A stretch of 64,000 nt of DNA, from assembly GCA_963719085.1 (NCBI GenBank), contig CAVRAL010000004.1, forward strand, positions 1,223,078 to 1,287,077. Reading direction: 5' to 3'. This stretch comes from a candidate division FCPU426 bacterium (GTDB lineage: Bacteria > Oederibacteriota > Muellerivitia > Muellerivitales > Muellerivitaceae). The notes under the pieces were generated by a model that saw only the letters and a program-made list of their open reading frames with translations, ran no database searches and had not been told where the DNA came from. The position numbers and the translations under genes were made by a program. Position 1 is the stretch's first letter. Every line of letters starts with the position of its first letter. Of this stretch, positions 1 through 7,769 are shown piece after piece.

Positions 1-2
1 TG

Positions 3-158
3 GGCAAGCAGCAGGTGGTTCTGAAGGAACTGGGCGAAAGCCTGCATGACCTGAAGGGCGTCCTGGGCGGGGCCATCTTGGGGGAAGGAAGAGTCGGGCT
101 CATCCTGGATATGGAATGGCTGGTTCGGATGATGAGCGGGGCGTCGTCGAGAAATTAG
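3..158 (+). CDS. cheA: Chemotaxis histidine kinase CheA, C-terminal CheW-like (P5) domain; 5'-truncated by the window edge
   Basis: Manual translation GKQQVVLKELGESLHDLKGVLGGAILGEGRVGLILDMEWL...* matches the CheA C-terminal motif; followed by che genes. Confidence 0.88.
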   Translation, partial: GKQQVVLKELGESLHDLKGVLGGAILGEGRVGLILDMEWLVRMMSGASSRN

Positions 159-320: not shown

Positions 321-2480
321 ATGAAGGTTCGAGGATTCAGGATGGGCGTGACGCTGGTTTTGGCCGGCGCGCTTTGTTTAGGGTCGGTTCAGGCGCAGGA
401 CGCCGCTCCGGCGGCCGCGGCCAACGGCGGTCATGATTTGACGGCGGTCAGTTTAGAAAGCCTGATGGGCTTGAACGTGGTGGTCACTTCGGCGTCCAAA
501 AAAGCCGAGTCTTTGCGGGACGCGACCTCCGCTATTTTCGTCATCACCCAGGACGACATCCGCCACAGCGGGTTCAAGACCATTCCGGACCTTTTGTCCA
601 TGGTGCCCGGGGTGCAGGTGGCGCGGCAATCGGGGGATGAGTGGGCCGTGAGCGCGCGCGGGTTCAACAGCAATTACAACAACAAGATGCTGGTGCTGGT
701 GGACGGACGCAGCGTGTACGATCCGGTTTTGGGCGGCGTCAACTGGGACGAGCAGGGCGTGATCCTGGAAGACATCGACCATATCGAGGTCATCCGCGGA
801 CCCGGCGGGACCCTCTGGGGATCCAACGCGGTCAACGGCGTCATCAACATCATCACCAAGGACGCCAAACTGACCCAGGGCCTTTATGTCTCGGCCCTGG
901 GCGGCGCCAATCTTTATAAAAACGGCGTCTCCTCCCCGACGGCCCTGAACGGCCAAGGCGAGGCGCGCTACGGCGGCCAATTGGGCGGCGACCTTTATTA
1001 CCGGGTCTACGGCAAAGCCGATAACCAGAACCCCTTCGAGAACCCGGATCAGGGAACCGCGGAACAGGCGCTGAACGGCCCCTGGCATGACGGTTCCTAC
1101 GATTTCCAGGCGGGTTTCCGCGGCGACCTGCACCAGGACAGCGACCAATGGACCTTCGAGGGCGCGGCCGAGCAAGGTCATTTCGACTATACCCGGTTGA
1201 ACACGACCGCCAGCCCTATTTTCGATCCGATCACCTTCACCAATGTCAACGACATCAACACCGACATCGACCAGAACGCCCATTTGCTGGCGGGCTGGAC
1301 CAAGGATTTCAACGACGACTCCGAAATCCAGGCGCAAGGCTATTACGACTTCAACCACCTCACGACCTCCAACGACGATCGCTTAAGCGACGTGGGCCAG
1401 GCCGACCTCCAGTTCCAGCACCGGTTCCATTTGGGGGATGTCAACGAGATCACCTGGGGCGGCAGCTGGCACAACGACACGGTGCGGTTCGCCAATCCGT
1501 TGAACTGGTATTACGTCCCGCAAAACCAAACCGTCAACATCTACTCGGGATTCCTGCAGGACCGGTTGACCCTGGAACGGGACCGCTGGAGCCTGACGGT
1601 CGGCACCAAGCTGGAGAACAACCCCTACACGGGGAACGAGTGGCAGCCTTCCGCCCGATTGCTCTTCACCCCCAACGAGAAGGACAGCTTCTGGGGCGCG
1701 GTGTCGAAGGCGGTCCGCATTCCGACCCTCAGCGCGGAGACCGGTTATGTCTACCTGGCGGGAGTTCCGGCCGGTACTTTCGGCCCCGGCTCCCCGGCGG
1801 AAAACACCTATGGCGCCCTGGTCCCCAATCCGGACCTGAAGGCGGAAAACCTGGTGTCCTACGAATTGGGCTACCGCACGAACCCGACCAAGGAAACCTC
1901 GATCGACCTGGCTTCCTTCTATAACCACTATGAGCAATTGATCAACATCCCGATCGTGCCGGGAAGCTTTTCCTCGCCCGCGGGCGGGGTCATCTCCGAG
2001 GGCGGCTACGGCTTGCCGGTTTTGCAGGAACAGAACACCGGCACGGGCGATATTTGGGGCTTGGAACTGAGCGCCACCTGGAACCCTTCGGCCCAATGGC
2101 GCGCGGCCTTGTCCTACAGCTATCAGGACTATGACCAAGCCATGATCCAGGCTTCCAGCACCAATCTGGGGGGGCCGCCGCCGCACAACTTGGCGAGCCT
2201 GCGCTTGGCCTACACGCCGGTGACGGGACTTTCCTTCAACGGGGAGATTTATTACACCGACGCGACTTTCTTGTACGACTTGAGCACGGACGACGGCAGC
2301 ATCACGCCCGACTATGTGCGCCTCAACCTGGGCGCGGACTGGAAAGCCACCGACAACCTGGAACTGGCCTTGGAAGGCCTGGATTTGGAAGGGGCCCACT
2401 CGGAAACCCTGCAAGCCTACGGCATCTCGCCGGTTCAAGTGGTGCCGAGCTTTTACGCCCAAGCCACGCTTCGCTACTAA
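321..2480 (+). CDS. TonB-dependent outer-membrane receptor (YfiR-associated type)
   Basis: Signal peptide, SLESLM..VVVTSASKK N-terminus, plug motifs (LVLVDGR, IEVIRGPGGTLWGSNAVNGVINIITK), C-terminal aromatic beta-strand ending in Y; RBS aaggagg. Confidence 0.93.
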   Translation: MKVRGFRMGVTLVLAGALCLGSVQAQDAAPAAAANGGHDLTAVSLESLMGLNVVVTSASKKAESLRDATSAIFVITQDDIRHSGFKTIPDLLSMVPGVQVARQSGDEWAVSARGFNSNYNNKMLVLVDGRSVYDPVLGGVNWDEQGVILEDIDHIEVIRGPGGTLWGSNAVNGVINIITKDAKLTQGLYVSALGGANLYKNGVSSPTALNGQGEARYGGQLGGDLYYRVYGKADNQNPFENPDQGTAEQALNGPWHDGSYDFQAGFRGDLHQDSDQWTFEGAAEQGHFDYTRLNTTASPIFDPITFTNVNDINTDIDQNAHLLAGWTKDFNDDSEIQAQGYYDFNHLTTSNDDRLSDVGQADLQFQHRFHLGDVNEITWGGSWHNDTVRFANPLNWYYVPQNQTVNIYSGFLQDRLTLERDRWSLTVGTKLENNPYTGNEWQPSARLLFTPNEKDSFWGAVSKAVRIPTLSAETGYVYLAGVPAGTFGPGSPAENTYGALVPNPDLKAENLVSYELGYRTNPTKETSIDLASFYNHYEQLINIPIVPGSFSSPAGGVISEGGYGLPVLQEQNTGTGDIWGLELSATWNPSAQWRAALSYSYQDYDQAMIQASSTNLGGPPPHNLASLRLAYTPVTGLSFNGEIYYTDATFLYDLSTDDGSITPDYVRLNLGADWKATDNLELALEGLDLEGAHSETLQAYGISPVQVVPSFYAQATLRY

Positions 2481-2504
2481 TGCCGAACGGTCAAGGAGAC
2501 CTTT

Positions 2505-3056
2505 ATGAAAAAGTTTAAACGCGTTCTTCTTCTGAGCTTGATGGGCCTGGCCTGGCCGGTGTTCGGACAGGGAGTGTCCGAATACACGGTCAAGGCCGCC
2601 TATCTTTACAACTTCGCCCAGTTCGTGGACTGGCCCAAGGGCGCCTTCGGGGGCGACGCCGCCCCCCTGGTGATCGGCATCGTGGGCGACGACCCTTTCG
2701 GATCCTCGCTGGATGACGCCGTCAGCGGCAAAACCGCCGGCGGCCACCCGCTGTCGGTGAGGCGCCTGGGGGCTTTTGACCCGGCCAAAGCCGCGGGGCT
2801 GGGCCGCTGCCAGATGCTTTTTATTTCTTACTCCGAAAAGGACCACCTGCGGGACATCCTGCAGGCCCTTTCGGGCGCGAAGACGCTCACGGTCTCGGAG
2901 ATCGACCGGTTTCCCATGAAGGGCGGCATGATCCAGTTCGACCAAGTGGGCGACAAGATCACCCTGGACGTGAACCCCACGGCCGCCAAACACGCGGGGC
3001 TTTCCCTGCGCGCGCAGCTGCTTCAGGTTTCCAAAATACAAGACTCGGAGGAATAG
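2505..3056 (+). CDS. YfiR-family (DUF4154) periplasmic protein
   Basis: Signal peptide; EYTVKAAYLYNFAQFVDWP, GDDPFG, LTVSE, GGMIQF motifs. Confidence 0.9.
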   Translation: MKKFKRVLLLSLMGLAWPVFGQGVSEYTVKAAYLYNFAQFVDWPKGAFGGDAAPLVIGIVGDDPFGSSLDDAVSGKTAGGHPLSVRRLGAFDPAKAAGLGRCQMLFISYSEKDHLRDILQALSGAKTLTVSEIDRFPMKGGMIQFDQVGDKITLDVNPTAAKHAGLSLRAQLLQVSKIQDSEE

Positions 3057-3058
3057 CC

Positions 3059-4573
3059 ATGAGGTTCGTTCATTTCAAGGGATTTTCCCTCCGGGACAAA
3101 ATCATCTGGATCACGGGACTCTCGACCACCGTCTCGCTTTTGCTGGCCTGCCTGGTGCTGGCCCTGAACGAGCGGATGTCGTACCCGAAAATTATGGCGG
3201 GACACTTGGGTGAGCTGGCCCAGGTGATCGGGGACAACAGCACGGCGGCCTTGAGCTTCAACGACGCCAAGACCGCGCAAACCTTGCTGGAGACCCTCAA
3301 GGGCAACCCCCATATCGTCTCGGCGCTGCTTTATGACGCGCAGGGAAAAATTTTCGCCCAGTATTCGCAAGACTCGGCCGCGCCCCTGCCGGTTTCGGCG
3401 GTCACCGCCCAGCCCCAGGGCTGGTCGCTTTCGGGCGGGTCGCTGGCGCTTTACCAGGACATCAACCTGGGCGGGCAAAAGGTCGGGACGGTGCGCCTGC
3501 AATCGGACCTCAAGGAAATGAGCGCCCGCATGGCCGCTTACAGCCTGGTGACCTTGGCGGTCTTGGTCTTGTCCGTCTTTGTTTCTTTCTTAACCTCCGC
3601 CACGCTTCAAAGGCAGGTGTCGGACCCCTTAAGGACGGTCATTGAGGGGTTGAACGACAGCGCCCAGCAAATGACCGCCAGCTCCGGGCAAATTTCCACC
3701 GCCAGCCAACAGCTGGCCGAGGGAGCGTCGGAGTCGGCCAGCAGTTTGGAAGAAACCATCTCGTCCTTGGAAGAGATGGCTTCCATGACCCGGCAAAACG
3801 CCGAGAGCGCCGGACGGGCTAAAAGGCTGATGGAGGAGACCCAATCCACGGTCTCCCGGGGCAACCAATGCGTTTCGGAGACCCTCGGTGCGATGCAAGA
3901 AATGAACGACAGCGCCCAAAAGGTCGCCAAAATTTTGAAGACGATCGAGGAGATCGCCTTCCAAACCAACCTGTTATCCCTCAACGCGGCCGTGGAAGCG
4001 GCCCGCGCCGGGGAGCAGGGGAGGGGTTTCGCCGTGGTGGCCGAGGAAGTGAGGAGCCTGGCCCAGCGCAGCTCCGCCGCGGCCAAGGACACCGCCAATC
4101 TGATCGAGGAAAACGCCCGCCGCGCGGCCCAAGGCCTCAAGGTCAGCGACGAGGCGGGACGGGCCCTGACCCAAATCGTGGATCAGTCCAAGAAGGTGTC
4201 GGGCCTCATTGAGGAGATCGCGGTGGCCAGCGAGGAACAATCCCGGGGCATCCAAGAAATCAACGGCGCCGTGGCCCAGATGGACAAGGTCACCCAGCGC
4301 AACAGCGCCAATTCGGAGGAATTGTCCTCCTTCAGCGAGGAAATGTCGGGCCAATCCAAGGGGCTTAAAGAAATGGTCGGCGGACTATTGCAAGTCTTGA
4401 ACGGCGTCAAAGCCGGCCTCGCGCCCGAGCCCTTCGCCGCGGCGCCGGCGCCGATAGCAAGTGTTCCGGCCAAACCAGCCGCCGCCCCGGCGTCGTCGCG
4501 CCGGGAAGCGCGCGTCAAGCGCGCCCCGGAGCGGGTGGTGGCCTTGAGCGCCGAGGAATTACGGAACTTTTAA
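3059..4573 (+). CDS. Methyl-accepting chemotaxis protein with CHASE8/YfiN-like periplasmic domain
   Basis: Two TM helices; periplasmic AQVIGDNSTAALSFND..A..LL..L..NPHI..A.LYD..G..FA.Y; signalling hairpin [37 protein letters not shown]. Confidence 0.92.
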   Translation: MRFVHFKGFSLRDKIIWITGLSTTVSLLLACLVLALNERMSYPKIMAGHLGELAQVIGDNSTAALSFNDAKTAQTLLETLKGNPHIVSALLYDAQGKIFAQYSQDSAAPLPVSAVTAQPQGWSLSGGSLALYQDINLGGQKVGTVRLQSDLKEMSARMAAYSLVTLAVLVLSVFVSFLTSATLQRQVSDPLRTVIEGLNDSAQQMTASSGQISTASQQLAEGASESASSLEETISSLEEMASMTRQNAESAGRAKRLMEETQSTVSRGNQCVSETLGAMQEMNDSAQKVAKILKTIEEIAFQTNLLSLNAAVEAARAGEQGRGFAVVAEEVRSLAQRSSAAAKDTANLIEENARRAAQGLKVSDEAGRALTQIVDQSKKVSGLIEEIAVASEEQSRGIQEINGAVAQMDKVTQRNSANSEELSSFSEEMSGQSKGLKEMVGGLLQVLNGVKAGLAPEPFAAAPAPIASVPAKPAAAPASSRREARVKRAPERVVALSAEELRNF

Positions 4574-4598
4574 CCTGGAACAAAGAATGGAGAAGGCA

Positions 4599-5096
4599 AT
4601 GACCGATCAAAAGGGTGAGGACAAGTACCTGACCTTCGCCGTGGGCCGGGAAGAGTACGGCGTGGAAATCCTCAGGGTGAAAGAAATCGTCGGGCTCTTG
4701 GATATCACGGCGGTCCCCATGACCACCACCCATATCCGGGGGGTCATCAACTTAAGGGGGAAGATCATCCCGGTCTTGGACCTGCGGCACAAGCTGGGGC
4801 TTCCGCCGGCCGCGAGCGCCAAGGAAAACTGCATCGTGATCGTTTCGGTTTCGGGCCGCCAGGGCGAGAGCCCGGTGGGCCTGTTGGTGGACAGCGTGAA
4901 CGAGGTCTTTAAGGAGGCGGACGCGCAAAAAGAGCCCCTGCCCGAGGTGGGGGAAGGCAAGAGCCTGGATTTCGTGAAGGGGCTGGCCAAGGTCAAAGGG
5001 CGGCTGGTGATTTTGCTCGATGTGGAAAAAACCGTCCTGCGGGAAGAGCTCGAGGGCTTGGAAGAACTTGAAAATTTGGCGAAGGCGGGCCGGTAA
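4599..5096 (+). CDS. cheW: Chemotaxis coupling protein CheW (alternative start 4587)
   Basis: KYLTF..G.EEYG..I..V.EI, GVINLRGKIIPVLDLR, GLLVDSVNEV. Confidence 0.95.
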   Translation: MTDQKGEDKYLTFAVGREEYGVEILRVKEIVGLLDITAVPMTTTHIRGVINLRGKIIPVLDLRHKLGLPPAASAKENCIVIVSVSGRQGESPVGLLVDSVNEVFKEADAQKEPLPEVGEGKSLDFVKGLAKVKGRLVILLDVEKTVLREELEGLEELENLAKAGR

Positions 5097-5098
5097 GG

Positions 5099-5935
5099 AT
5101 GGAAACCATGACAGTCAAGGAAATGCGGTTGGCGGAGTTTGAGAAGCTGGCGCGGCTGGTCTATGAGCAAAGCGGCATCAAGCTGGAGCTTCCCAAACGG
5201 GATCTTTTACAGGCGCGCCTGCGCAAACGGCTGAAGGCCCTGGGCTTAAGCGGGTTTAAGGATTATTTAAAGTTCGTGGCCCAGGATTCGACCGGCGGGG
5301 AAGTCATCCAGATGATGGATTGCGTGACGACGAACAAGACCGAGTTTTTCAGGGAAGGGCGCCATTTCGAGCATTTGGCCGAACAAGCCTTGCCGGCTTT
5401 GCTTCAGCGCCCGGACCGCCGGGAAGAGCCCTTGCGGCTTTGGAGCGCGGCTTGTTCCACGGGCGAGGAAGTTTACAGCCTGGCCATGACCGCCCTGGAA
5501 AGGGTGGGCGGGACCCGGGTGGTGAAGGTTTTGGGCACCGACCTGTCCACCCAGGTCCTTCAAAAGGCCTTGGAAGGGCGCTATGACGCCGACAAAACCC
5601 GGGGCGTGCCGGAAGCCTGGCGGGTGAAGTATTTCATCCAAGAAGAAGCCGAGGGCCGGTGGGTCGACCGCGCCGGGCATCTGCTAAAGCGGGTGACGCG
5701 TTTTTCCCGGCTCAACTTGAACGGCGGGGATTACGCGTTCCGCGCGCCGTTTGACGTGATCTTTTGCCGCAACGTGATGATTTATTTTGACGCGGCCGTC
5801 CAGCAAAAGCTGGTGGACCGCTTGACGGGCTGTTTAAAGCGGGGCGGCTATCTTTATACCGGCCTCTCCGAAAGCCTGCTTCGGGTCAAGCATGGGCTCG
5901 TCAATATCGGACCGTCGATTTATCAAAAACCATGA
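5099..5935 (+). CDS. cheR: Chemotaxis methyltransferase CheR
   Basis: TTNKTEFFRE, WSAACSTGEEVYSLAM, FDVIFCRNVMIYFD. Confidence 0.96.
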   Translation: METMTVKEMRLAEFEKLARLVYEQSGIKLELPKRDLLQARLRKRLKALGLSGFKDYLKFVAQDSTGGEVIQMMDCVTTNKTEFFREGRHFEHLAEQALPALLQRPDRREEPLRLWSAACSTGEEVYSLAMTALERVGGTRVVKVLGTDLSTQVLQKALEGRYDADKTRGVPEAWRVKYFIQEEAEGRWVDRAGHLLKRVTRFSRLNLNGGDYAFRAPFDVIFCRNVMIYFDAAVQQKLVDRLTGCLKRGGYLYTGLSESLLRVKHGLVNIGPSIYQKP

Positions 5936-6435
5936 AGCGGGAGATTTTAATGACGACGGACCAGAAGGTCATCGTGGGCGTGGGCGACTATTGGGTGACG
6001 AATGACCGGGCCAAGACCCTGGTGACTTATTCGCTCGGGTCTTGCGTGGGCGTGACGGCTTTTGACCCCCAGGCGGGGGTCGGGGGGATTTTGCACTTTA
6101 AGCTTCCCCACTCCGAGCTCAATCCCCGCATGGCGGCCGACAAGCCGGGGGTTTTTGGCGACACGGGATTGAAGGCTTTTTTGGAGGAGCTTTTCGGGCA
6201 GGGTGCCACCCGGCCCCAATTGGAAATCAAACTGGCGGGCGGGGCCCAGTCCCTGGGGACCGGTTCCTTCAATATCGGCCAGCGCAATTTGCTGCTCGCC
6301 CGGCGGTTTTTATGGATGAACGGCCTATTGGTTTCCCGCGAGGACACCGGCGGGCATGACTACCGCACCTTGCGTTTGGAAATGGCCACGGGGCGGGTTT
6401 TGCTGCAGGACCCGAGGGGCGCTTACGAGCTGTAA
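5932..6435 (+). CDS. cheD: Chemoreceptor glutamine deamidase CheD (alternative start 5950)
   Basis: LGSCVGV, GGILHFKLP, NIGQRN, EDTGG..RT motifs. Confidence 0.93.
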   Translation: MKREILMTTDQKVIVGVGDYWVTNDRAKTLVTYSLGSCVGVTAFDPQAGVGGILHFKLPHSELNPRMAADKPGVFGDTGLKAFLEELFGQGATRPQLEIKLAGGAQSLGTGSFNIGQRNLLLARRFLWMNGLLVSREDTGGHDYRTLRLEMATGRVLLQDPRGAYEL

Positions 6436-6443
6436 CAGAAGGG

Positions 6444-6472
6444 TGAGAAAGTCCCGAAACCGGACTTTCTCA
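6444..6472 (+). terminator. Perfect 11-bp hairpin between cheD and the CheY-like gene (terminator or mRNA-stabilising stem)
   Basis: tgagaaagtcc-cgaaacc-ggactttctca. Confidence 0.5.
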
Positions 6473-6589: not shown

Positions 6590-6985
6590 ATGGCTTTTAA
6601 TTTCTTGATCGTGGATGACTCGACGACCAGCCGGGGCATCATCAAAAAAACGCTGAAACTGACCCGGCTGCCCCTGGGCGATATTTGGGAAGCGGCCAAC
6701 GGCCGGGAAGGCCTGGACCAGATGCGCTCCAACTGGGTGGACCTGGTTTTGGCGGACCTGAACATGCCCGACATGACGGGCCAGGAAATGATCGAGGCCA
6801 TGGGCCAAGATCCCCTGCTTTCCAAGCTGCAAGTGGTGGTGGTGAGCTCGGAAGGGAACCAAGCGGTGCTGGACTCGCTCTTTAAAAAAGGAGTCCGGCA
6901 GGTGGTGCGCAAGCCCTTCGAGCCGGCCTTGCTTCGGGACGTGATTGAGAAGGCGCTCCAAATTAAATCCGAGAGCCAAGACTAA
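6590..6985 (+). CDS. CheY-like single-domain response regulator
   Basis: LIVDDS, DLNMPDMTG, VSSE, KPF receiver motifs; within che cluster. Confidence 0.9.
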   Translation: MAFNFLIVDDSTTSRGIIKKTLKLTRLPLGDIWEAANGREGLDQMRSNWVDLVLADLNMPDMTGQEMIEAMGQDPLLSKLQVVVVSSEGNQAVLDSLFKKGVRQVVRKPFEPALLRDVIEKALQIKSESQD

Positions 6986-6998
6986 AAAGGGGGAGAGG

Positions 6999-7769
6999 AT
7001 GACGAACACACAGCTCAAAAACGTGCTTTTGATCGACGGGGCCGCGATGTCCCGGAAACTTTTGGCGGTACGCCTGCAGTCCATCGACTTGAACCCGGTG
7101 GAAGCCGCCAACGCGGCGGAGCTTCACAAGTTGACCGGACCCGGCCGTTCGTTTGATTTGGTCGTGACCGAGCAGACTTTGGAGGGAATGGAAAGGCCGG
7201 AGTTGCTTCAGAAATTAAGGGACTTGGGATGCCCCGTCCTTATCTTTACCGACCAACCGGTGACCGAGGCCCAAGAAAAGCCTTCTTATATAAGGGGAGT
7301 CTTTCACAAGAGCCAGCGCAATGACCTGCTGAAGGCCGTGGTGGTGGCCCTGGGCGCTGTGCCCGCCCGTGAAATGAAGGAAGTGGAACGCCATATCCTG
7401 GTGATCGAGGATTCGCCCACCATCCGCAATTTCCTGCGGCGCATTTTAGAGAAAAGTTTCCCCGGCAGCGTGATCCGGGAAGCCTCCGACGGACGGGAAG
7501 CCCTGTCCGAGATGTCGAATAAAAAGGTCGATTTTATCCTCACGGACCTTCAGATGCCGGGCATGGACGGCCACGCTTTTTTAAAGATGCTGCATTCCAA
7601 TCCCATCCTCAAGCACAAGCCCGTGGTGGTGCTGTCCTCTTCCATCACGTCCGAACTGCGCGAGCAGGTGAAAGGCTTTGAGAAGGTGCGGCTTTTGGCC
7701 AAGCCCTCCTCGGCCGAGGAAATTTCAAAAACCCTGGGCGAACTGATGGTCTTGTCGACGGCGGTTTAA
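6999..7769 (+). CDS. Tandem receiver-domain protein (degenerate REC + canonical REC)
   Basis: ATG at 6999 after ggagagg; N-terminal REC has VVTEQ in place of the phospho-Asp; C-terminal REC has IEDS, TDLQMPGMDG, KP. Confidence 0.85.
   Translation: MTNTQLKNVLLIDGAAMSRKLLAVRLQSIDLNPVEAANAAELHKLTGPGRSFDLVVTEQTLEGMERPELLQKLRDLGCPVLIFTDQPVTEAQEKPSYIRGVFHKSQRNDLLKAVVVALGAVPAREMKEVERHILVIEDSPTIRNFLRRILEKSFPGSVIREASDGREALSEMSNKKVDFILTDLQMPGMDGHAFLKMLHSNPILKHKPVVVLSSSITSELREQVKGFEKVRLLAKPSSAEEISKTLGELMVLSTAV

Follow-up and report, generated by a model that had tools for sequence, protein, structure and literature searches.

The window analysed here, a 64,000-nucleotide stretch of contig CAVRAL010000004.1 (positions 1,223,078 to 1,287,077 of the forward strand; assembly GCA_963719085.1) from a candidate division FCPU426 bacterium, carries three tightly linked genes between cheA on the 5' side and cheW-cheR-cheD on the 3' side. 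In order and on the same strand, they encode a TonB-dependent receptor (TBDR; P0001, 719 amino acids [aa], positions 321–2480, plus strand), a YfiR-like periplasmic protein (P0002, 183 aa, positions 2505–3056, plus strand) and a methyl-accepting chemotaxis protein (MCP) with a CHASE8 sensor domain (P0003, 504 aa, positions 3059–4573, plus strand). This trio is a rare chemoreceptor version of a widespread and already catalogued TBDR/YfiR-like/CHASE8 cassette, the usual output of which is a histidine kinase, and its three products probably make up one trans-envelope sensory unit. In what we consider the best full explanation, which stands at slightly better than an even chance, the TBDR provides the input, the YfiR-like protein is the relay, the CHASE8-MCP passes the signal to the adjacent CheA, and contact is made via a short 'SLExLM' segment of the receptor.

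The coordinates of the three genes, the intergenic gaps of 24 bp (TBDR to YfiR-like) and 2 bp (YfiR-like to MCP) and their place inside the che operon, all given in an original prediction made from the sequence alone, were confirmed by open reading frames (ORFs) and Pfam matches, and all three frames are intact. In NCBIfam, a cassette is already catalogued with these parts in this order: NF053590 (TOL_0244 family TBDR), NF053591 (TOL_0243 family YfiR-like protein) and NF053592 (sensor histidine kinase, YfiR-like protein-associated), with a kinase as the output there and an MCP inside a che operon here. The original prediction had a TBDR standing in for YfiB and a chemoreceptor for the cyclase of YfiBNR. 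As a description of gene content this is correct, but the TBDR is not special to this locus, being the rule for the NF053590–NF053592 family, in which the output is nearly always a kinase. The author of the prediction also knew of no characterized example with an MCP output. We found no functional study of the cassette in the literature, the one hit being a proteomics paper on TOL_0244, but an MCP output of a YfiN-like sensor had already been noted in silico, in a row of Table S4 that reads 'Polaromonas: YfiN has MCP output domain' (PMC3375315). The word 'TonB' is absent from the text and the 8 supplementary files examined of that paper. In the literature, no paper was found that combines 'DUF4154' with 'TonB-dependent', and, by title, none of the papers naming CHASE8 is about chemoreceptors or TBDRs.

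P0001 matches the Pfam families Plug (9e-22) and TonB_dep_Rec_b-barrel (2e-32), has a signal peptide at aa 1–25 (judged by eye) and is of the TOL_0244 kind, with NF053590 as its best NCBIfam family. No STN or other signalling domain was found in it with Pfam at E <= 0.1.

P0002 matches DUF4154 ('YfiR/HmsC-like'; 1e-41) and scores 142.9 bits against NF053591, above the cut-off of 125 bits. The best Protein Data Bank matches of its structural model (predicted local distance difference test [pLDDT] 88.6) are all Pseudomonas YfiR (TM-score 0.71–0.78, target-normalised; 17–20 per cent identity), and the YfiR-like family matches solved YfiR in a profile comparison (E 2e-7), so that both sequence and fold bear out the expected YfiR type of the middle gene. 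Next after the YfiR chains come entries of about 155 aa named 'Rhodothermus marinus substrate-binding protein', which may be solved YfiR-like members filed under another name. P0002 has a single cysteine, the positions aligned to Cys71, Cys145 and Cys152 of Pseudomonas YfiR are not cysteines, and no match to NF053586 ('sequestration protein YfiR') was found at E <= 1e-5. Since P0002 has neither of the two disulfides of Pseudomonas YfiR, what the YfiBNR model says about redox is inapplicable to it. The most conserved residues in an alignment of YfiR-like proteins (A1) are those of alpha1, W43-P44, G140-G141-F145, N157, L166, S169 and L172-L173. Mapped via the YfiR alignment, they fall on the surface that serves YfiR for binding YfiB and, by prediction, YfiN (PMC4655355).

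In agreement with the predicted CHASE8-like sensor, a hidden Markov model scan of P0003 found CHASE8 (PF17152; 4.7e-19) at aa 50–147 (positions 3206–3499) and MCPsignal (1.6e-47) at aa 258–412 (positions 3830–4294); neither HAMP nor GGDEF has a Pfam match in the protein. Because two hydrophobic segments, at aa 14–38 (TM1) and 155–184 (TM2), flank CHASE8, the sensor domain is periplasmic. With a signalling domain, two transmembrane segments and a gene clustered with cheA, cheW and cheR, P0003 has the features of an MCP. The model of its periplasmic domain (pLDDT 88.4) has two helices and five strands in a PDC/extracytoplasmic-PAS fold, and its structural matches (TM-score 0.6–0.7 on the query) are the kinase PAS domain 3cwf, a LapD-type periplasmic domain, WalK and CitA. 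The periplasmic domains of WalK and of the LapD type are under the control of partner proteins. Within the best-conserved part of CHASE8 lies the stretch 'SALLY' ('AACLY' or 'AALY' in other proteins), which by eye, and not by alignment with YfiN, is similar to 'AAVVF', the YfiR-binding motif of YfiN (PMC3375315). At its C-terminus (positions 4424–4573), P0003 has an Ala/Pro-rich linker and ends in 'EELRNF'; the terminal '(L/M)(R/K)NF' motif occurs in 10 of 12 sequences of this type of MCP and is reminiscent of the CheR/CheB-tethering pentapeptide of Escherichia coli receptors, but lacks its Trp.

Distribution of the cassette

In the 3.04-Mb genome, DUF4154 and CHASE8 each match at three places, and every time side by side. 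Besides the plus-strand trio of the window (module A), there is a minus-strand kinase-type cassette on contig C4 (module B, L008:6442-12310) made up of a TBDR, a YfiR-like protein and a 993-aa CHASE8-HAMP-PAS-kinase, followed by receiver proteins; module B passes all three cut-offs (NF053590, NF053591 and NF053592). In the TBDR of module B, the signal peptide is separated from the conserved segment described below by a long stretch rich in Pro, Thr and Ser. The third cassette (module C, L009, contig C1, minus strand) is again of the MCP type, with the gene order cheA, cheW, TBDR, YfiR-like, CHASE8-HAMP-MCP, cheY-like, cheB, cheR and cheX. There, DUF4154, CHASE8, HAMP and MCP are joined in a single 701-aa frame (L009:7939-10041, minus strand), which we treat as the result of a one-base error or mutation and not as a domain fusion: a +1 frame after '...LSAQ' restores the normal YfiR C-terminus with its stop codon, after which the MCP starts at the usual distance of 2 bp, and the topology of the fused protein would be impossible. 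At L009 9504, a Logan contig of run X1 is one base shorter (depth 3.5, which makes this weak).

Fifty-four CHASE8 proteins came up in a word-limited search that used the sensor part of P0003 as its query; of these, 41 have a kinase output, 8 MCPsignal (47–97 per cent identity to the query), 3 GGDEF-EAL and 2 PAS only. Full-length P0003 matches are present in 4 of 40 genomes of relatives (G010, G024, G021 and G002), all of them among the 24 other genomes of the same family. Three of them, G010, G021 and G024, represent three other genera of the family and have the TBDR, the YfiR-like gene and the MCP inside an orthologous che cluster; the neighbourhood in G016 is degenerate. A metagenome scan yielded 24 loci, 5 of which have an MCP output and an assessable upstream region (L115, L116, L126, L129 and L133; L127 and L138 were left out, as they start too near a contig end). 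All five have a TBDR and a YfiR-like gene directly upstream, and in four of them cheW comes next, whereas L133 is a stand-alone trio amid unrelated genes. The neighbourhood survey that the original prediction had called for thus finds the trio kept in che clusters of other genomes. One reason to read the trio as a unit is that its genes move together, into two different che clusters and also to a stand-alone site.

A quick maximum-likelihood tree was built from 86 YfiR-like proteins. In it, the family's five MCP-linked proteins form one clade with two that are linked to 468-aa kinases (SH-aLRT support of 99). A further MCP-linked protein, that of locus L034, falls outside this clade, and the well-supported branches require at least two changes of output.

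Across phyla, a search of one-genome-per-species contigs with profile A1 of YfiR-like proteins found 567 relatives, and the best 80 loci were taken as a census. Its search patterns included 'GDDPF', making it a survey of the TBDR-linked kind rather than of all DUF4154 proteins; neighbouring genes were called from six-frame ORFs with phmmer, using this genome's own proteins as queries. By record title, the 80 loci come from many phyla, including Verrucomicrobiota, Acidobacteriota, Gemmatimonadota and Bacteroidota, and their neighbouring ORFs often overlap by a few bases. Of the 72 loci with at least 1.5 kb of upstream sequence, 63 have a TBDR no more than 600 bp upstream of the YfiR-like gene, on its strand in 57 cases and divergent in 6. 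Downstream, a CHASE8 ORF is found at a distance of up to 600 bp in all but three (L032, L076 and L087) of the 77 assessable loci, which makes 74. The output of 77 CHASE8 ORFs, called with Pfam for 40 plus 2 ORFs and with phmmer for the rest, is a kinase in 69 cases and an MCP in one (L034); the remaining 7 are cut or split and have no call. Tandem doubling of the cassette occurs in L120 and L070, and at other loci (for example, L021 and L010) a single YfiR-like gene is accompanied by two to four paralogous TBDRs. L032 has its YfiR-like gene between a CHASE3-MCP upstream and four TBDRs downstream.

The receptor segment and the route of the signal

The TBDRs of these cassettes have an N-terminal feature in common that we propose here and that is outside the curated NCBIfam definition. 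In P0001 it is the segment 'DLTAVSLESLMGL', which together with the TonB-box-like 'NVVVTSASKK' spans positions 435–503 (plus strand; aa 39–61) and is a candidate mini signalling segment. The 'SLExLM' segment itself (aa 39–51, about 13 conserved residues) lies directly ahead of the putative TonB box 'NVVVTSA', judged by eye. Within the genome, the pattern '(V/M/L)SLE(S/N/Q)L(M/A)' ahead of 'V.VTS' is found in all three cassette TBDRs and in none of four other TBDRs. Five TonB_C frames are present in the genome, none of them adjoining a cassette TBDR; three lie within a few kb of non-cassette TBDRs (contigs C1 and C4). The segment could be aligned in 59 of 59 cassette TBDRs, with L48 of P0001 invariant. 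An earlier count by regular expression (31 of 49 adjacent TBDRs) was discarded, as the alignment places the fault with the expression.

A profile of 25 positions of the segment (A3), run on 41 genomes that are kin and whose counts are therefore not independent, matched at 32 places, compared with 183 Plug matches in the same genomes. Twenty-four of the matches are followed by DUF4154 on their own strand, some 2 kb further on, one is a tandem TBDR of such a cassette, and five are frames cut at contig ends, so that 25 of the 27 assessable matches are in a DUF4154 cassette. Eight more DUF4154-adjacent TBDRs, below detection by A3, have by eye a degenerate 'SLExL..TEVVY' form. Where single cassettes contain tandem TBDR paralogues (L010, L021 with three, L072), all of the paralogues keep the segment next to one YfiR-like gene, which fits several receptors docking to one relay. 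Conservation of the three genes together across phyla and this private N-terminal segment are further grounds for regarding the trio as one unit that receives its input from the TBDR. Moreover, the TBDR of a che operon cannot be the regulated target, because the Che pathway has no transcriptional output.

We propose that the TBDR would act as the outer-membrane input, the YfiR-like protein as a soluble periplasmic relay, and the CHASE8 domain of the MCP as the docking site of that relay at the inner membrane. Ligand binding to the TBDR would free its extreme N-terminus, a behaviour already known from TonB boxes and FecA-type signalling domains. The released, amphipathic SLExLM segment could then capture the YfiR-like protein via its conserved groove, presumably the one that Pseudomonas YfiR uses for both YfiB and YfiN. 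Docking of the YfiR-like protein on CHASE8 is expected because of homology with YfiR-YfiN (PMC3375315, PMC4655355). A shift in the occupancy of CHASE8 by the YfiR-like protein would change the state of the MCP, and with it the control of the kinase, through the CheW and CheA encoded next door. Gene content, folds, the conserved linkage and gene order, and the segment with its specificity are observations; we infer all protein contacts, the direction of the effect, the ligand and the target of the pathway. That the TBDR signals by direct contact through its N-terminal segment is, taken by itself, a tentative proposal.

Several observations weigh against this reading, some of them by favoring a relay in which the receptor and the YfiR-like protein never meet. 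The YfiR-type fold is similar to half of a type I binding protein and is also compatible with a TBDR that imports a compound into the periplasm, where the YfiR-like protein binds it and, loaded or empty, docks on CHASE8. An invariant loop specific to the YfiR-like family, 'GDDPFG', follows the first strand, which is where binding proteins often hold their ligands. The namesake TBDR of NF053590, TOL_0244, is up sevenfold on the n-C28 alkane in Thalassolituus oleivorans and was read by the authors as an uptake protein (PMC6304351). Such a ligand relay would, however, leave the cassette-specific segment ahead of the TonB box without a role, and with two to four tandem TBDRs per YfiR-like gene it would require one small protein to serve several ligands. 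We prefer the contact model, towards which the tandem TBDRs that all keep the segment lean, even though the binding-protein-like fold leans the other way, and regard the ligand relay as rather unlikely, yet the most serious of the alternatives.

Other points concern the partnership itself. No adjacent TBDR is present in 9 of the 72 assessable census loci (L015, L032, L034, L044, L046, L051, L053, L088 and L089), among them the YfiR-like/CHASE8 pair with an MCP output of L034; in L051 a TBDR lies 2 kb away from the YfiR-like gene. Where Pfam names the upstream genes at such loci, they are unrelated ones that encode TPR, PAS kinase, FIST, REC-GGDEF-EAL and phosphoglucomutase proteins. In the orthologous che cluster of the relative G002 (L105:9461-11526), the CHASE8-MCP comes directly after cheW, and both the TBDR and the YfiR-like gene are missing; the genome's only DUF4154 match is about 79 kb from the che cluster, in a kinase-type cassette. 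Two of the 27 assessable A3 matches are full-length TBDR frames on contigs without DUF4154. No fusion of DUF4154 to a TBDR or to CHASE8 was found, a search for longer proteins having returned one 338-aa protein with DUF4154 only, which is a weak point. The TBDR-less loci and the lone MCP of G002, along with the many YfiNR pairs reported without YfiB (PMC3375315), are what would be expected if the TBDR were a mere neighbour with a transport task of its own and the YfiR-like/CHASE8 pair sensed the state of the periplasm or envelope alone. We consider this improbable in view of the large majority of loci across phyla in which the TBDR stays next to the pair, its presence with the pair in two che clusters and in the stand-alone trio, and the N-terminal segment common to cassette TBDRs; in addition, the two disulfides behind the redox sensitivity of Pseudomonas YfiR are absent.

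The window module could also be decaying or not expressed. P0001 scores 466.7 bits against NF053590 and does not pass its cut-off of 645 (the next family scores 122 bits), and P0003, with 141.8 bits, falls short of the cut-off of 194 for NF053592; P0003 has no HAMP domain, and the window cluster has no cheB, unlike the related cluster of G021. The two scores below the cut-offs also count against the main reading. Decay is nevertheless highly improbable, given three intact frames, two folds predicted at pLDDT 88, and a HAMP-less junction and C-terminal motif that are both kept in P0003 orthologues at 53–97 per cent identity.

If the receptor does signal to the MCP by way of the YfiR-like protein, cells could navigate toward substrates that need active uptake because they are large, chelated or hydrophobic. 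To our knowledge, chemoreceptors are thought to see only what gets to the periplasm, and trans-envelope signalling by TBDRs goes via pairs of anti-sigma and extracytoplasmic function (ECF) sigma factors. SLExLM might be a minimal signalling domain that hands the ligand signal to a soluble YfiR-like relay, constituting a third, sigma-factor-independent route of TBDR signalling that is present in many phyla, serves mostly kinases and here lets a chemoreceptor array reach ligands that do not diffuse into the periplasm; this broader idea is speculative, and we think it less likely than the contact itself. As a candidate contact, the segment is a short, testable peptide. Because kinase-type cassettes are common in soil phyla, one worked example would explain many unannotated operons. 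New here are the occurrence of two MCP-type copies within a single genome, the recognition of a false fusion, the stand-alone trio, the TBDR-less variants and the cassette-specific TBDR segment.

The surrounding che operon

The window opens within cheA, whose 3' end occupies positions 1–158 (plus strand; stop codon TAG at 156–158); the whole gene (G000:C4:1221154-1223235) encodes a 693-aa protein with Hpt, H-kinase_dim, HATPase_c and CheW domains. Downstream of the trio and on the same strand follow cheW (positions 4587–5096; Pfam CheW, 6e-35), cheR (positions 5099–5935; Pfam CheR and CheR_N) and cheD (positions 5932–6435; Pfam CheD, 4.5e-24). Directly 3' of cheD, a hairpin with an 11-bp stem (positions 6444–6472), identified only as a consensus match, is a possible operon end; terminator-like matches in the window scan number 19, close to the 11.9 expected from shuffled sequences (standard deviation 3.3). 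The promoter scan found no promoter-like site on the plus strand upstream of the trio. Five DNA runs are listed among the public sequencing runs matching the locus, two of them with at least half of the words, and no RNA run is listed.

A possible output of the pathway is a 274-aa response regulator (positions 6945–7769, plus strand) with a C-terminal receiver domain (aa 151–263) and an N-terminal half without assignment. Homologues of 257–274 aa occur in related che clusters, and its protein-atlas neighbours are response regulators of 247–267 aa, with the FleQ family in 58 per cent of one cluster's members. The genome as a whole contains four che clusters, seven T2SSE-type ATPase matches and FlhA; Flagellin_N was not found in it. 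Upstream of the window (L007:8488-12501), a 1169-aa multi-PAS protein ends in HisKA, and 15 bp later a 164-aa HATPase_c ORF begins, followed by a sigma-54 activator gene; the pair is either a kinase split between its catalytic halves or the product of a sequencing break.

Comparison with known systems

The trio shares with FecA-FecR-FecI-type transducers a TBDR with a conserved stretch preceding the TonB box, encoded beside the genes of a signalling pathway. In FecA-type transducers, it is a signalling domain that is located N-terminal to the TonB box. The trio differs from them in having no STN match in P0001, no anti-sigma or ECF sigma neighbours, and a soluble YfiR-like protein as the periplasmic partner. 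A soluble periplasmic protein acting on a transmembrane receptor is also found in MBP-Tar and LuxP-LuxQ, where MBP docks on Tar and LuxP on LuxQ; the YfiR-like protein is distinguished by its single-lobe YfiR-type fold and by the linkage of its gene to a TBDR gene. OmpS of Alcanivorax dieselolei, reported as a sensor of extracellular alkane that triggers chemotaxis (PMC9788540, PMC6304351), is, like the window receptor, a TBDR-like outer-membrane protein, and it is placed upstream of a chemotaxis response; its similarity to TOL_0244 is given as 40.3 per cent (PMC6304351).

Another close parallel is YfiBNR (TpbB/DgcN; Pseudomonas aeruginosa and E. coli), in which the gene of a DUF4154 protein of YfiR fold likewise lies beside that of an inner-membrane CHASE8 protein. 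HmsCDE of Yersinia is its counterpart. Both YfiBNR and the trio have three tiers, in the outer membrane, the periplasm and the inner membrane. They differ at the two ends: the outer-membrane partner is the OmpA/Pal-like lipoprotein YfiB in YfiBNR and a 22-strand-type TBDR in the trio, and the output is CHASE8-HAMP-GGDEF in the former and an MCP signalling to CheA in the latter. No YfiB gene lies beside the pair in the window, where the neighbours are the TBDR and che genes; the rest of the genome was not searched for YfiB. The cassette also presents the YfiR-CHASE8 core as a portable module, which takes its input from YfiB or from a TBDR and has a cyclase, a kinase or an MCP as its output.

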